NCBI GenBank assembly: GCA_041739785.1
Contig: JBGSNE010000106.1
Coordinates: 29,649 to 93,648, forward strand
Direction of reading: 5' to 3'
Length of the DNA: 64,000 bases
From: Pirellulaceae bacterium
GTDB taxonomy: Bacteria > Planctomycetota > Planctomycetia > Pirellulales > Pirellulaceae
Below the pieces are notes generated by a model. The model made no database searches. It was not told where the DNA came from and saw only the letters and a program-made list of their open reading frames with translations. Both the position numbers and the translations under genes were made by a program. This document shows, in pieces, positions 13,680-26,045 of the stretch. Within the stretch, counting starts at the first letter, position 1, and every line of letters starts with the position of its first letter.

Positions 13680-14841
13680 TCAAATCATGGGAAAGCGATT
13701 ATGCATTGCTTGGTCAAGCAATGCGATCGGATTATACGGAGCAATTGCGTCGGCAATCGAGCGGCGGAAGTCGAGATAGTTATCGCGTTTCTGCAACGCA
13801 GTTGCCGTATTTAACTGACTCAAAACGCTATTTGCTGCGTCAACAAGTTCTGCTTCATCACATGCCAGGAAACCGGCATGGGACACATCGCATTCGGCTG
13901 TAATGCGTCGCTCATGCAGAACAACCGCCGCAAAATATGCGGCCGTCGCATCCATGAAGAGTTGCGTATTGGGAAGGCCAGCATAACACAGCGATACCAG
14001 CGTATCGATCCACCGCACTTCTCGTTGAAGCCAATGATTATAAGTCGCCAATCGCTGGTTGACCTCCCCTCCTTGCGAAAACGCCAGTGCAATGCGTAAA
14101 ACCCCTGTCAATGAATGTGCTATGCCAGTACTGTGCAGCGGATCGATAAAGCCAAATGCGTTGGGCATCGAGACCCAGCCATCGCCCACGGCGGTCGAAT
14201 TGCAACGCGCTAGCCGCTTTGATTGATGCATTTGGCTGATTGGCACCGACGCAGCCGCATGCGTTGAATCAATCAGAGTAGCATTGGCCAGCAACTCGGC
14301 GATGGTTGGATAGGAACCAATAGCCTGCTGCCACAATGCATTCAAATCGCCAGCCAGCGTGGTGACTAAACCAACACTGGTCGTACCGCATTGGAATCTT
14401 AGAAACCACAGCCAGCCTTCTTCGATAATGTGATGTTGAGCTGCATGATCGGGATTGAAAATGCGTGACGGATCTGAACTCAGAAATTGATCGTTATTTG
14501 AGAAGTGCAAGACGCCTTCGAAGTGCCCAAAAGTGGATCGAGCATGCATTTGAATGGAACCATCGTCGTCACCCGAATGTAAGCGGTCCCGAGAGAAATC
14601 GGCGCTTCCCGTCGCGTCAATAATCCAGTCACAGGACAGTGTTGTTGTTTCAGACAATTCGTTTCTTAGTTCAACCATCCATCGATTGCTGTGCCGCTCT
14701 AGTGCCCCAACAACCGCTTGCTCACGAAGCTCTACTCCGTAGTTGACTGCCGTTTTGGCCAAATATTGATCGACGTCGCTACGCAGCCAATGGGTATCGG
14801 AATTGAAGTCATTGGTCGAGGCAGCCACCATCAGCGAGTAC
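13680..14841 (-). pseudogene. 5'-truncated flavin-dependent halogenase-like oxidoreductase
   Basis: LMVAAS...DTHWLRSDVDQYL, WIIDATG, GWLWFLRF (WxWxI-like), GFIDPLHSTGIAH; no GxGxxG N-terminus; the ORF start is only the translated tandem repeat. Confidence 0.75.
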
Positions 14842-14938
14842 AAGCATCGGGGACATAAGCATCGGGGACATAGCACTTGTAAGCATCGGGGACATAGCAC
14901 TTGCGTTACAAGCATCGGGGACATAGCACTTGCGTTAC
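14842..14938. repeat. Tandem array of aagcatcggggacata(gcacttg) units, 4 copies
   Basis: Copies start at 14842, 14858, 14881 and 14910 (units of 16, 23, 29, 29 bp); core ggggacatagcac recurs inverted at 16368 and 16797. Confidence 0.95.
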
Positions 14939-15096
14939 GGAAAAAGTTTACTGAAAAGGAGGATTTGAGTGTAAGGAATCTCGGTTTTTTCCGTCGTCTA
15001 TATATCTGACTTCTCTCGCCGATTATTTCCGCCGGCTAAGCATGCTAGCAATGGCTGGCTCACGTGATACCGAGATCCTTTAAAGGGGGTAACATC

Positions 15097-16143
15097 ATGG
15101 CTCGTTTAGCTCGTGCGGAGCACTTTGCGCCTGATGAAATTGCGATTGTTCATGTCTTCAACCGCGTCGTCCGACGTTGTTATCTAATGGGCGACGATCC
15201 AGTAACTGGAAAAAACCATGACCATCGCAAGGTATGGATCGAAGAGTTGATAAAACGCCAAGCCCAGTTCTTCGCTGTGGATATCCTCGCGTTCTCTATT
15301 CTTTCCAATCATTTCCACCAGGTATTGCGCTCGCGGCCCGACGTGGTGTCGACTTGGGACGATACCGAAGTGGCTCGGCGGTGGTTGATGATTTGCCCCG
15401 CTCGCAAGGGGACTGATGGCTTTGCACTGGAACCCAACGAGGCGGAGCTGAATTCGATCCGTACTGACCCGGACAAATTGAAAATGATCCGCTTGCGCCT
15501 GAGCGACATCTCGTGGTGGATGAGACTGCTGTGCCAGAAGATCGCGCAGAGGGCAAATGCCGAGGAAGAAATTTCCGGAAAATTTTGGGAGACTCGCTAT
15601 CGCGCTGTCAGAATTCTCGATGAAGCGGGATTGTTGGCCTGTGCAGCCTATGTCGACCTCAATCTGATTCGGGCTGCGCTAGCGGAGTTATTGGAAGATA
15701 GTAACCATAGTTCTATCCAGCGCCGGATCGCTGCTATGAAAGAGGAAGCGACTGACACAGGGCGCCAACGGTCAGATAGTTTTCTGGCTCCGCTGACGAT
15801 CGACGAATTGCGCGATGCCTTGGGACCTTGTGCGAACCAACGCGGGGAGCGTGCCAGCGATAAAGGGTTTCTAACGATGTCGATCGAATCGTATGTCGAG
15901 CTACTCGACTGGACTGCGCGGCAGATTGTTCTTGGTAAACGCGGCAGCACCCCGGTTGCGGCCCCTGTGATCCTCAAACGCTTGCAGCTTGACGCACAAG
16001 TATGGTGCGAGTTAGTCAGCGACTTTGGTCGCTTGTTCAGTTTAGTAGCTGGCCGGCCTCAAGTCATCGATGCTACCCGCAGTCGACGCCGCCAAAGTCG
16101 ATACCGTTCGCCACGCCGTCTGCGAGAATTGCTGGTTTGCTAA
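15097..16143 (+). mobile_element. HUH/Y1 (IS200/RAYT-like) transposase
   Basis: MARLARAE, HVFNRVVRRCYL, ILSNHFHQVL (HUH), RLSDISWWMR, FWETRY, YVDLNLIRA (catalytic Tyr region). Confidence 0.9.
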
Positions 16144-16384
16144 CCACCGCTTCGACGCTTCGGCATTTTTCGTAAGCTTCGCGAGTATTTGCTTGCTCGT
16201 CTAGTCGAAGCTGTATTTGGCCTTCTTGGTATCTCGCCCTTTTTCCGACAGGGAACCGTCTCTGCTGCGTGATATCGTCGATCGGCCCTTCTATTGCAGT
16301 CGTTTTTGGCTAAATGCAATTCCCGCTAGACATTCACTCCAAGGGCTGCTTCTCAACCTGCCACCACAGTGCTATGTCCCCGTT

Positions 16385-16815
16385 GGTTTTGCCCCTGCGA
16401 TCCTCGAACGCCTGCAGCTTGACGCACAAGCCTGGTGCAAGTTAGTCAGCGATTTTGGGCAGTTGTTCAGTTTGGTAGCTGGTCGTCCTCAAGTCATCAA
16501 TGCCACCCGCAGTCGACGCCGTCAAAGTCGATACCGCACGCCACCCCGCCTGCGAGAATTGCTAGTTAGTTAACCACCCCCGCGAAGCTTCGACATGTTA
16601 CGCAATCTTCACTAGCATTGGTTTGTTAGTCCGGTCGAAATTCAATCTGGAGCTCTGTATCTCACGCCTTTTCGGTCAGGGGATCATGTCTGCTGCGTGA
16701 TTTGGTGGATAGATTCTTCTACTGCAGTCGTTTGGGGCTGGCTTCGATTCTCGCTAGTTCTTCACACCAAGGGGCTGCTTCCCAACCTACCATCACAGTG
16801 CTATGTCCCGGTTGG
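16385..16815 (+). repeat. Diverged ~430-bp tandem duplicate of transposase 3' end plus downstream flank (copy 1 about 15955-16385)
   Basis: gcccctg at 15961 vs 16391; both copies encode ILxRLQLDAQxWCxLVSDFGxLFSLVAGRPQVI...RLRELLV and end in agtgctatgtccc.gttgg. Confidence 0.92.
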
Positions 16816-21755: not shown

Positions 21756-21797
21756 AAGGGACAATGGGGACAAGAAGGGACAATGGGGACAATGCAC
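21756..21797. repeat. 19-bp tandem duplication containing a ggggacaNNgcac motif variant
   Basis: aagggacaatggggacaag aagggacaatggggacaatgcac. Confidence 0.7.
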
Positions 21798-22165
21798 TGG
21801 GTTCGTGGAAAACAATTTTGCAAAAAGTGTGGATTGTGTTGTAAGGTTCTGCGATTTTCTCCGTCTTATTAATTGACGTTAGTTCTTTAGGAGCGACTTC
21901 AGCTGACATTTTTCAGCCTCTATAGGAGCACAAATAAATCTGGCGCAGATTGGTCTACAACGCAAGGTGGCAAATCGCAAAATCGACAGCAGCTCTGTAT
22001 TCCCGATGTTGCTGCCACTAACGTCCAACATCAATAGTCCCTGACTGCTTCCGTTTTTAGGGAACTCGCAGGGTTAGCGTGACAGCCACCGTTGTCTGTC
22101 GCTGGTTTTCGAGCCACAATATTTGACGCGATATGCGGGCTCAATTAGAAGGGGAGGATGCGTCG

Positions 22166-23698
22166 ATGCTGGCTAAACTCAATACGCTGTCACTTCTGGG
22201 CATCGAAGCACTGCCCGTCGAAGTGGAAGTTGACGTCTCCGCGACGTCGATGCCCAAGACCATGTTGGTGGGACTGCCAGAGCAGGCGGTAAAGGAGAGC
22301 GTGCATCGTGTCGAACGAGCGATTGTCAACAGTGGCTTTCAGCGTCCCAATGACCGCATTGTCATCAACCTAGCCCCGGCGGAATTGCCCAAACAAGCCG
22401 CTTCGTTTGACTTGCCAATTTCCCTGGGACTCTTAGCAGCTAGCGGGCAGTTCCATTCGGACTGTTTCAAAGAGTACGCAGTCGTGGGTGAACTGGCTCT
22501 GGAAGGGCATACACGGAATATCAAAGGGGCCTTATCGATGGCGATCGCAGCCCGCGATGCCGGATACAAAGGCATTCTCGTCCCCAGCGAAAACGCGGGC
22601 GAAGCAGCAGTGGTCGACGAAATCCAAGTCATTCCGATTTCGACTTTGACCGAAGCCGTGGGGTTTTTCGCTGGCACGCTCGAGATCGATCCGCACCCGT
22701 CGCAACTTAAAGAACTGTTCGCAGAGTATAGCAACTATGATTTGGACTATTCGGATGTACGCGGACAGGATGTCGCCAAGCGAGCGCTAACAATAAGTGC
22801 TGCCGGCGCGCACAACCTGTTGATGCTTGGACCACCCGGTTCGGGCAAAACGATGCTTGCCAAGCGCCTTCCGTCGATTCTACCGACCTTGACAGCTGAA
22901 GAGTCGATAGAAACAACTCGCATCTACAGTTCTCTCGGTAGACTGAAACCAGGACAACCGCTGTTGGCAGTGCGCCCTTTTCGCTCACCACATCATACGA
23001 TCAGCAACGCAGGCCTAGTTGGTGGCGGAAGCCCGCCTGCGCCTGGCGAAATCAGTTTGGCACACCATGGCGTTCTTTTTCTCGACGAGCTCCCGGAATT
23101 CGATCGACGAACATTGGAGGTCATGCGCCAACCGTTGGAGGATCGAACGGTCACCATTTCGCGAGCCATGAGAAGTACCACGTTCCCAGCTAACTTTATG
23201 CTAGTAGCGGCGCTCAACCCGTGCCCATGCGGATTTCGAACTGATCCACGTCGCAGTTGTTCGTGTAGCCAAACACAGATTGAACGCTACATGGCTCGTA
23301 TCTCCGGACCATTGCTCGATCGAATTGACATTCACATTGAAGTGCCGTCGGTTCCTTTCCAAGAACTCTCTTCGTCTCAACTGGGAACCAGCAGCGAAAA
23401 CATGCGTGAGAGCGTCGAACTGGCACGCGAGCGGCAAGCAGCCCGTTTCAGCCATGCTCCAAGTCTCTACAACGCACTGATGTCCAGTCGGCAATTGCGC
23501 GAGTACTGCCCGCTGGATAAGACCTGTATGCATCTACTGCGCGACAGTTGCAATGAGCTCGGGCTTTCGGCTAGAGCCCATGATAAGATCTTGCGCGTGG
23601 CGCGCACGATCGCGGATCTCGAAGATGCGAACGACATCTGTCCCATGCATTTGCAGGAAGCCATCAACTACCGCATGCTGGACCGCAACTTGTTCTAG
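22166..23698 (+). CDS. comM: YifB/ComM family Mg-chelatase-like AAA+ ATPase
   Basis: VEVEVD, LVGLPEQAVKESVHRV, INLAPAELPK, DVRGQ, GPPGSGKT, FRSPHHTIS, GVLFLDELPEF, NPCPCG, ISGPLLDRID. Confidence 0.96.
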   Translation: MLAKLNTLSLLGIEALPVEVEVDVSATSMPKTMLVGLPEQAVKESVHRVERAIVNSGFQRPNDRIVINLAPAELPKQAASFDLPISLGLLAASGQFHSDCFKEYAVVGELALEGHTRNIKGALSMAIAARDAGYKGILVPSENAGEAAVVDEIQVIPISTLTEAVGFFAGTLEIDPHPSQLKELFAEYSNYDLDYSDVRGQDVAKRALTISAAGAHNLLMLGPPGSGKTMLAKRLPSILPTLTAEESIETTRIYSSLGRLKPGQPLLAVRPFRSPHHTISNAGLVGGGSPPAPGEISLAHHGVLFLDELPEFDRRTLEVMRQPLEDRTVTISRAMRSTTFPANFMLVAALNPCPCGFRTDPRRSCSCSQTQIERYMARISGPLLDRIDIHIEVPSVPFQELSSSQLGTSSENMRESVELARERQAARFSHAPSLYNALMSSRQLREYCPLDKTCMHLLRDSCNELGLSARAHDKILRVARTIADLEDANDICPMHLQEAINYRMLDRNLF

Positions 23699-25407: not shown

Positions 25408-25969
25408 TTAAACCGTTTTGGACTCTCGCATGGCTCGTGCTGCTCGCCGTACTAGATTGCTGACACTATCCGGATGAGATAAACCAAATAGCCCAGCCAG
25501 TTCGCGAAACCTCGCCGTCGTGTGGCGATGAGCCAAATAGGCTGCCATGTCTCGGCCACGGTTTTTTCGAACGTCCAGGGGAGTATCTCAAAACTTCCTC
25601 ATCATAAAAGCTTGCAACGACGTGCAATACTTCTTGCGGCGTTAATGCAATTCGACGCAGTTGAGGAACCTGATCTGGTTGATGTCCTGGCCGATCATGC
25701 CGTTTAGCGTACCAATTCGCATAGCCGCTGAGCAAGTACTGCATACCACGCGAAAGATTGGGTTGCGGAGTTCGGAAGAACAAGTGGATATGATTCGGCA
25801 TCCACACAAACGCGAACACTTCCCAACCTGTTCGAGCGACCGTCATCTCGAGCCCGTCGAGCATACCCTGGTAGTCTTCGTCAGTATGAAACAGCAACTG
25901 GCGACCATTTCCACGCGCCATGACATGATAGATCGCCCCGTTAACTTGAATTTGCAACGGTCTTGCCAT
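25408..25969 (-). mobile_element. REP-associated tyrosine transposase (RAYT) pseudogene with internal deletion and frameshift
   Basis: MARPL...YHVMARGN, FVWMPNHIHL (HUH), LSRGMQYLLSGY, RHDRPGH then a jump to a C-terminal HTH (GRDMAAYLAHRHT...[15 protein letters not shown]) in another frame; the LFQGRY and YIHLNP segments are missing. Confidence 0.88.
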
Positions 25970-26045
25970 AACAACCAAAAATTCTTACCTGTATCTCGAA
26001 ATACGGACGAACTCCTGAAAACAGGGTCTGACCCAGGTGGCGGTT

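Follow-up and report, generated by a model that had tools for sequence, protein, structure and literature searches.

A TIRtron with stuttered ends in a Pirellulaceae genome: repeat arrays at the inverted GGGGACAY ends of a Y1/HUH element as probable traces of nicking and re-synthesis

What kind of element carries a growing array of head-to-tail repeats on one side of a Y1/HUH transposase gene and inverted copies of the same motif on the other, and how could such an array arise? The question is raised by a stretch of 64,000 nucleotides from a Pirellulaceae bacterium (assembly GCA_041739785.1, contig JBGSNE010000106.1, positions 29,649 to 93,648), which as a whole is called the window here and is numbered from its first letter. 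With a probability of roughly 75%, we read the locus as a TIRtron, a 1.48-kb element resembling an insertion sequence (IS), in which a Y1/HUH enzyme related to the RAYT transposases (a TIRYT) would act on 21-nt ends built around GGGGACAY, and in which the repeated units, termed stutter below, would have been left by nicking and re-synthesis. The class is already known and poorly studied, and the window locus is an ordinary member of it. We know of no biochemical test ever made on a TIRYT/TIRtron element.

The left side of the element displays four head-to-tail units between 14842 and 14938, each beginning with AAGCATCGGGGACAT, while the stop differs. The original prediction had described four growing units of 16, 23, 29 and 29 bp; the series is indeed present upstream of the transposase gene, with lengths that have to be corrected to 15, 24, 29 and 29 nt. 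Units 3 and 4 are identical and unit 2 deviates in its last base only. A 13-nt core occurs just three times in the array (14864, 14888 and 14917), because unit 1, which has no AGCAC, already stops at GGGGACAT. Over the 21 nt of the inverted repeat, 14910-14930 and 16368-16388 match at 19 of 21 positions (90%), and the GGGGACAT core of the left end (14917-14924) fits the published GGGGWSAS consensus at 7 of 8 positions. The whole element thus delimited covers 14910-16388 (1479 bp), a size comparable to that of a 1439-bp multi-copy element in Neorhodopirellula pilleata. That the 29-nt units agree perfectly suggests that the left end was recently active, the evidence for mobility itself coming from relatives.

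Downstream of the gene, the inverted core that had been predicted is found twice, as an exact match at 16369-16381 and with one mismatch (CGGG for GGGG) at 16798-16810. The two distant variants claimed earlier also exist, one on the minus strand at 2455-2467 (one mismatch) and one at 21785-21797 (two mismatches), the latter with a stutter of its own at 21756-21797. With up to two mismatches allowed, the 13-nt core reaches nine matches in the window against 1.22 expected, a number attained in 0 of 100 shuffles. The core was likewise rightly described as not being a hairpin, as the 29-nt unit, the array and the 96-nt end regions fold no better than shuffled sequences on either strand (z from +1.15 to -0.72). 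Neither a palindrome nor a GTAG tag is present in the ends of the window element. No direct target-site duplication is seen at the flanks in the window or at six N. pilleata copies, and a search of 30 relatives with the left and right flanks gave no usable match to an empty site.

A survey of 80 homologous loci from many planctomycete genomes places both the motif and the stutter at the ends of the element. In the 260 nt upstream of the gene, the exact motif GGGGACA[CT] is oriented inward at 40 of 70 loci and outward at 1 of 70; within 520 nt downstream, it faces inward at 26 of 69 loci and outward at 2 of 69. Controls gave 0 of 80 inside the open reading frame (ORF) and 1 of 57 in far flanks. 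When one mismatch is permitted, the core is also found at most of the remaining loci, on the left typically about 96-110 nt before the start codon and on the right about 245-360 nt, typically about 280 nt, after the ORF. The closest relatives (82% identity, Aureliella helgolandensis) carry GGGGACAYAGCAC at both ends. Stutter, called as local direct repeats of at least 14 nt lying no more than 90 nt apart, occurs at 33 of 71 left ends (46%) and 29 of 70 right ends (41%), against 0 of 81 ORF segments and 2 of 57 and 2 of 54 far flanks. The enrichment of motif and arrays over the controls shows that both belong to the element ends family-wide, in agreement with the earlier expectations that the motif accompanies homologous transposases and that the arrays are not general slippage.

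The arrays at the homologous loci offer a greater level of detail. Within them, the units have one common start and variable stops, and the pattern is mirrored at the right end. Neighboring units abut, the commonest spacer being 0, and overlaps or fillers of 1-3 nt are frequent. Units start 6-8 nt 5' of the G-run; the majority measure 13-19 nt and end in or just past the core, with a tail of the distribution reaching 51 nt, and the shortest consist only of the 7-9 nt preceding the core (loci L066 and L029). Long events of 128 to 430 nt occur occasionally at the right end, where long duplicates are also present in L065, L091 and L057. The anticipated array variation among homologues is seen as well, number, length and order of the units differing even between near-identical copies. 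At other loci, long and short units are mixed without a rule, so the growing series in the window is probably incidental. No conserved nucleotide marking a cleavage site is evident by inspection at the unit starts. An extreme array is carried by the metagenome-assembled genome Pirellulaceae M30B19 (L068, 13-1407), where about 60 tandem copies of the 14-nt GGGGACAGAGGAA stand beside a TIRtron with 14 stutter units; this array is an extreme expansion of a tip-derived repeat.

Relatives of the window element exist as multi-copy units. N. pilleata Pla100 harbors nine full-length copies of the 1439-bp element at 95-100% identity, along with about 20 further fragments, among them internal-deletion derivatives that retain both ends and are likely non-autonomous copies. 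In that genome (G031), derivatives composed of segments 1-236, 408-618 and 1237-1435 are present at several sites, for example C1:1510125-1510765. The similarity between the N. pilleata copies starts about 6 nt outside the G-run on each side, beyond which the flanks are unrelated, and it is at this boundary that the stutter units of these copies begin. Other genomes contain element copies at 92-98% identity, and many homologues lie on metagenome contigs of 1.2-2 kb. The presence of multi-copy, sharply bounded relatives indicates that the TIRtron family of these relatives is mobile and behaves like an insertion sequence, as judged from sequence comparison. The literature, by contrast, ascribes few copies and no demonstrated mobility to class 2 genes.

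The only ORF of the element encodes a protein with the HUH motif SNHFH (residues 70-74), the W motif GKFWE and a catalytic tyrosine, Tyr185, in AAYVDLNL. Motif conservation and domain matches were assessed on 48 family members, in which H72, H74 and Y185 are invariant; the family consensus is YVDLNP with the tail motif TS, where the window protein has YVDLNL and SS. NCBIfam REP_Tyr_transpos matches the window protein with an E-value of 8.3e-7, below its cut-off. Pfam Y1_Tnp reaches an E-value of 0.012 for the window protein and is matched by 33 of the 48 members, with a best value of 3e-5. The top match of a profile search of the PDB is ISDra2 TnpA, with the HUH strand aligned (E-value 0.4). 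The HUH motif and the tyrosine are 111 residues apart, compared with about 60 in a canonical RAYT that the host genome also encodes, and a profile comparison with that RAYT aligned the HUH segment alone, at a probability of 37%. No match to a C-terminal helix-turn-helix domain (Bac_DnaA_C, HTH_23 or HTH_28 in Pfam, E-values up to 0.05) was detected in the 48 members. More than 2000 proteins at an E-value below 1e-5 make this a large family. Among the best 120 matches listed, all those with a named organism come from Planctomycetota, A. helgolandensis being the nearest named relative. Full-length homologues are also encoded by plasmid genes of Alteromonadales, at 33-38% identity over about 90% of the length.

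These features fit a class described before. RAYT-like genes that have long terminal inverted repeats (TIRs) on both sides, rather than repetitive extragenic palindromes (REPs) with their hairpins, were named TIRYTs, or TIRtrons as elements, by Di Nocera, De Gregorio and Rocco (2013, PMC3733652). Many of the published TIRs, not all, have GGGGWSAS, TIR copies occur in genomes as singles, dimers or clusters, and the alignment of that work includes a planctomycete example, Rhodopirellula baltica rba 2408 (PMC3733652). In the searchable literature, we found the term TIRYT only there and in Quentin, Siguier, Chandler and Fichant (2018, PMC6006769), who equate it mainly with TnpA-Y1 subclass 2.1. 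The window element shares with the TIRtrons the RAYT-like Y1/HUH gene between inverted repeats without REP hairpins, a GGGGWSAS-type motif in the repeat (here GGGGACAT, with the family consensus GGGGACAC) and additional TIR copies elsewhere in the genome. Hence, the motif is not the non-canonical end that the original prediction took it for, but a known end type (PMC3733652, PMC6006769). On the other hand, the window protein exceeds the classic examples by about 100 residues in length and contains an insertion of about 50 residues between HUH and tyrosine, and the paper contains neither the stutter with fixed start and variable stops nor multi-copy, near-identical elements (PMC3733652).

Within the published classification, motifs and pairwise similarity point to an enzyme of the TnpA-Y1 subclass 2.3 type. 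That subclass has the motifs NHYH, WE and YVDLNP, a TS tail and a median length of 325 residues (Table 1 of PMC6006769). It is further described by two core insertions of about 10 (beta1:alphaA) and about 55 residues (beta3:alphaC), a long two-part tail, absence of REPs and about four copies per genome, in Chromatiales and Alteromonadales (PMC6006769). The window family agrees with it in the key motifs (NH[YF]H, WE, YVDLNP, TS), in length (348 residues for the window protein) and in lacking REP-like hairpins. More than one copy per genome and the Alteromonadales homologues are further common traits, Alteromonadales being a group in which subclass 2.3 is predominant. A long C-terminal tail and additional residues, both from beta1 to alphaA and from HUH to tyrosine, would be common to the two as well; the overall length and the 111-residue distance are the observations here, the structural model being too poor for placing the secondary-structure elements. 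Two differences stand out, as the paper reports no TIRs and low identity between copies (PMC6006769), whereas GGGGACAY TIRs are found in a large planctomycete branch and the N. pilleata copies are 95-100% identical. From subclass 2.1, the classic TIRYT clade, the window family differs in being without the C-terminal domain of DnaA-C/helix-turn-helix type. No TIRs of the GGGG type were found at three Alteromonadales homologue loci examined. An Alteromonadales homologue on the Pseudoalteromonas plasmid pPBSW1 is directly followed by a perfect 131-nt tandem duplication (L096, 1756-2017), with no GGGG-type inverted repeat there.

Comparison with other known systems narrows the assignment. REPtrons (RAYT/TnpA-REP) also combine a related class 2 Y1 nuclease (Y---NP) with inverted cognate repeats that bracket the gene and that cluster and spread in the genome. 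However, the window element has plain inverted termini without GTAG-tagged hairpins, and in its relatives gene and repeats form one multi-copy unit; membership among the REPtrons is ruled out by ends that lack flanking GTAG-tagged palindromic REPs. Members of the IS200/IS605 family (IS608, ISDra2) have in common with the window element the Y1/HUH chemistry, the absence of a target-site duplication and the small size. They differ in asymmetric ends with subterminal hairpins, in both cleavages being on one strand and in the tyrosine motif Y---Q, and the hairpin-free inverted ends and the class 2 form Y---NP exclude the window element from that family. A DDE-type insertion sequence is ruled out too, as the Y1 gene is the only ORF and no direct target-site duplication is present.

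A fixed start with variable stops at the element tip, mirrored at both ends, would be expected from a site-specific nick and subsequent synthesis over a variable length. The enzyme would bind the G-run core and nick the GGGGACAY-bearing strand 6-8 nt 5' of the core, exactly at the tip. Because the ends are inverted, the nick would fall on the top strand on the left and on the bottom strand on the right. A host polymerase would then extend the freed 3'-OH of the flank into the element to a variable extent, mostly by 13-19 nt, up to or just past the protein-bound core. After an abortive reaction, the displaced strand, which begins at the tip, would be rejoined to the extended end, either through the 5'-phosphotyrosyl link being reversed or through a template switch once the opposite polymerase has run off the nicked template. 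The outcome would be an additional, 3'-truncated copy of the tip, and repeated rounds would generate units with a fixed start and different stops, as at 14842-14938. Excision of a mini-circle and its reinsertion at the same site would yield the same product. The 5' part of the neighboring halogenase-like gene would have been lost in an associated rearrangement. The earlier view of the array as TIR-like ends of a Y1/HUH transposase that are iteratively re-copied is supported by these patterns, with the re-copying itself read from the sequence.

Since the recognized sequence lies on opposite strands at the two ends, a single-strand-circle pathway of the IS608 type appears unlikely. HUH Rep proteins, acting in parvovirus terminal resolution and rolling-circle replication, nick each inverted terminal repeat at one fixed position, where the 3'-OH serves as the primer from which the end is synthesized anew. 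By analogy, and with no membership claimed, these systems offer the closest working model for the stutter, although the window element is chromosomal and has neither hairpinned termini nor a helicase domain. Double-ended, nick-primed copy-out in the manner of HUH Rep at inverted terminal repeats is therefore one possibility. In a bolder and rather doubtful version, the stutter units would be scars that map TIRYT cleavage to the tip on opposite strands and record nick-primed strand-displacement synthesis, and the element would move by replicative double-ended copy-out, unlike the single-strand "peel and paste" of IS200/IS605.

Several observations weigh against reading the locus as a mobile TIRtron whose stutter reflects nicking and re-synthesis. 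The host genome contains only one intact copy, that of the window, in addition to one partial copy at a contig end (69% identity) and one remnant. The 6-8-nt tips are not constant among copies or across the two ends and could therefore partly be flanking DNA. Microhomologies of 1-3 nt are frequent at the unit junctions, and some arrays repeat one identical unit many times (L055, L021). The nicking, the position of the nick and the re-synthesis are all deduced from sequence patterns. At the protein level, the family matches of the window protein alone fall below curated cut-offs, its tyrosine motif is YVDLNL where more than 90% of relatives have a proline at that place, and the AlphaFold2 model built from 48 sequences is too poor to use (mean predicted local distance difference test score, pLDDT, 50; predicted template-modeling score, pTM, 0.34).

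The single intact copy speaks for an alternative that we consider improbable, in which a domesticated, immobile RAYT-like gene maintains REP-like, host-wide repeats in trans, as in REPtron/REPIN systems. In line with it, GGGGACANNGCAC is present at about 17 other loci of the host genome, several of them with their own stutter, and the literature attributes low copy number and no shown mobility to class 2 genes. Genome-wide, GGGGACANNGCAC gives 23 hits, where shuffled motifs reach a median of 3 and at most 15; there are also 23 same-strand doublets, the majority of them stuttered. This enrichment is modest, however, and the solo sites of the host genome are alike in the motif only. Immobility is also hard to reconcile with the nine near-identical, sharply bounded copies and the deletion derivatives in one relative and the 92-98% identical copies in others. 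The two readings are compatible, as the enzyme may move both itself and solo ends. Another origin of the dispersed motif, as the ends of a multi-copy IS in the host genome, was rejected because the sites share the motif alone.

Ordinary replication slippage in G-rich DNA, independent of the enzyme, is a very improbable source of the arrays as a whole. The common 1-3-nt junction microhomology and the arrays that are plain multiples of one unit (right end of L055, L021 and L068) do speak for it, and slippage therefore certainly contributes at least to the expansion of existing arrays such as these three. Yet arrays occupy 41-46% of element ends against 0-4% of the ORF and far-flank controls, and the units of an array keep a single start, which is the element tip, and differ in their stops, the pattern being mirrored at the two ends. 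That the units are selected, iteron-like arrays of binding sites, which titrate or position a protein or regulate neighboring genes, is scarcely credible: they adjoin a conserved leader with invariant blocks and one solo left end lies 250 nt upstream of a host gene, but unit number, length and order differ among near-identical copies within a single genome, roughly half of the ends are without an array, and many units are cut inside or before the core (as in the 7-9-nt units mentioned above) and so could not bind the protein.

If the stutter is indeed a scar of cleavage by a mobile TIRtron, the N. pilleata copies would be the first clear example in which a class 2 (RAYT-type) Y1 enzyme drives autonomous transposition. 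With the locus and its relatives, the subclass 2.3 type comes to include a large planctomycete branch whose inverted ends carry GGGGACAY and of which some members clearly multiply as 1.4-kb units with deletion derivatives. The reproducible scar at the ends yields a predicted site and strand of cleavage, concrete enough for a nicking assay. The value of the window locus lies mainly in adding to the evidence that end stutter and mobility are general. For annotation, it matters that the arrays create false N-termini, as in the halogenase ORF that extends 28 codons into the repeats, and that solo ends sit upstream of host genes.

Table. Features of the TIRtron locus and its immediate surroundings, in window coordinates
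Feature	Position	Strand	Description
Flavin-halogenase-like gene	13680..14840	-	Abuts the array; lacks about 150 N-terminal residues; formal ORF extends to 14924
Three stutter units	14842..14909	+	Each starts at the element's terminal sequence AAGCATCGGGG; inner cut-off point varies
Unit 1	14842-14856	+	15 nt; ends at GGGGACAT, without AGCAC
Unit 2	14857-14880	+	24 nt
Unit 3	14881-14909	+	29 nt
Unit 4	14910-14938	+	29 nt
Element left end	14910..14938	+	Fourth 29-nt unit; first 21 nt form the left terminal inverted repeat
5' leader	14939..15096	+	158 nt; conserved blocks TGTAAGGA at 14970-14977 and CCGTC at 14991-14995
TIRYT gene	15097..16143	+	348 residues; only ORF of the element
3' untranslated part of element	16144..16367	+	Between stop codon and right repeat
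Right terminal inverted repeat	16368..16388	-	Core at 16369-16381, exact match
Diverged second tail copy	16391..16815	+	60 C-terminal codons and stop, 3' untranslated region, right repeat with core 16798-16810

The leader between the left end and the gene is conserved beyond the window. In an alignment of 11 left ends (A3), the TGTAAG and CGTC columns are invariant, and in a subfamily of about 20 loci the blocks TGTAAG(G/A)A and CGTC lie about 50 and about 70 nt inside the left end. The conserved leader contains no canonical match to the sigma-70 promoter consensus. Its conservation would possibly reflect a promoter of another type or a subterminal protein-binding site.

The right-end motif is present twice in the window because of a 430-nt direct duplication, in which 15961-16386 and 16391-16815 are about 80% identical. 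The coding part of the tail is 87% identical, with 23 of 180 positions differing, distributed as 6, 4 and 13 over the three codon positions. The differing codons comprise 11 synonymous and 9 non-synonymous changes, and frame and stop are kept. Such a bias toward third positions, together with the preserved frame and stop, indicates that much of the divergence arose while both tails were functional genes. A fresh duplication in situ was rejected in view of the 80-87% identity and this bias. The outer tail is best read as the remnant of a diverged sibling element, or as the product of a long stutter-type event that a sibling would have templated. At the junction, there is a short similarity between CCCCGTTGG at the right tip and CCCCGGTTG in the gene.

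On the other side, the array is adjoined by the halogenase-like gene, for which the match to Pfam Trp_halogenase covers only positions 157-387 of the 458 in the profile. Its formal ORF reaches to 14924 and opens with 28 codons of repeat sequence. The missing N-terminal part was not found to the right of the element.

Beyond the window element, the partial copy in the host genome is located on the reverse strand of contig C3 (bases 420-700, L090), where about 11 stutter units starting with AGCTAACGG precede a full left end. The remnant, on contig C41, comprises a left end and 34 codons. Within the window, 21756-21880 is the solo left end of a related TIRtron, with the repeated tip GGGACAATGGGGACAAG, the core GGGGACAATGCACT, leader blocks TGTAAGG and CCGTC like those of the complete element, and no transposase gene. 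About 250 nt separate it from a downstream ComM/YifB-like gene of the Mg-chelatase family (22133-23698), for which it could serve as a source of a promoter. The variant at 2455-2467 on the minus strand is a solo GGGGACACAGCAC that adjoins a GC-rich hairpin (GGGTGG ... CCACCC), and neither a partner end nor a gene belonging to it was found nearby.

Ends of the GGGGACAC type with other inner sequence occur on contigs C6, C160, C293 and C300, which points to further families of the TIRYT type in the host genome. On C293, at about 2249-2380, two stuttered ends of this type face each other about 130 bp apart; the pair looks like a miniature, gene-less derivative of another TIR family, similar to a miniature inverted-repeat transposable element. 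A different Y1 gene (HUH motif ANHLH) is located on contig C97 (272-1192) between true REP-like hairpins (CACCGAT ... ATCGGTG), indicating that systems of the REPtron and TIRtron types coexist in this genome. In the window itself, a second, unrelated Y1_Tnp gene on the minus strand (25466-25978) encodes 170 residues with the HUH motif PNHIH (Pfam E-value 4e-8) and seems to be truncated after the HUH half.

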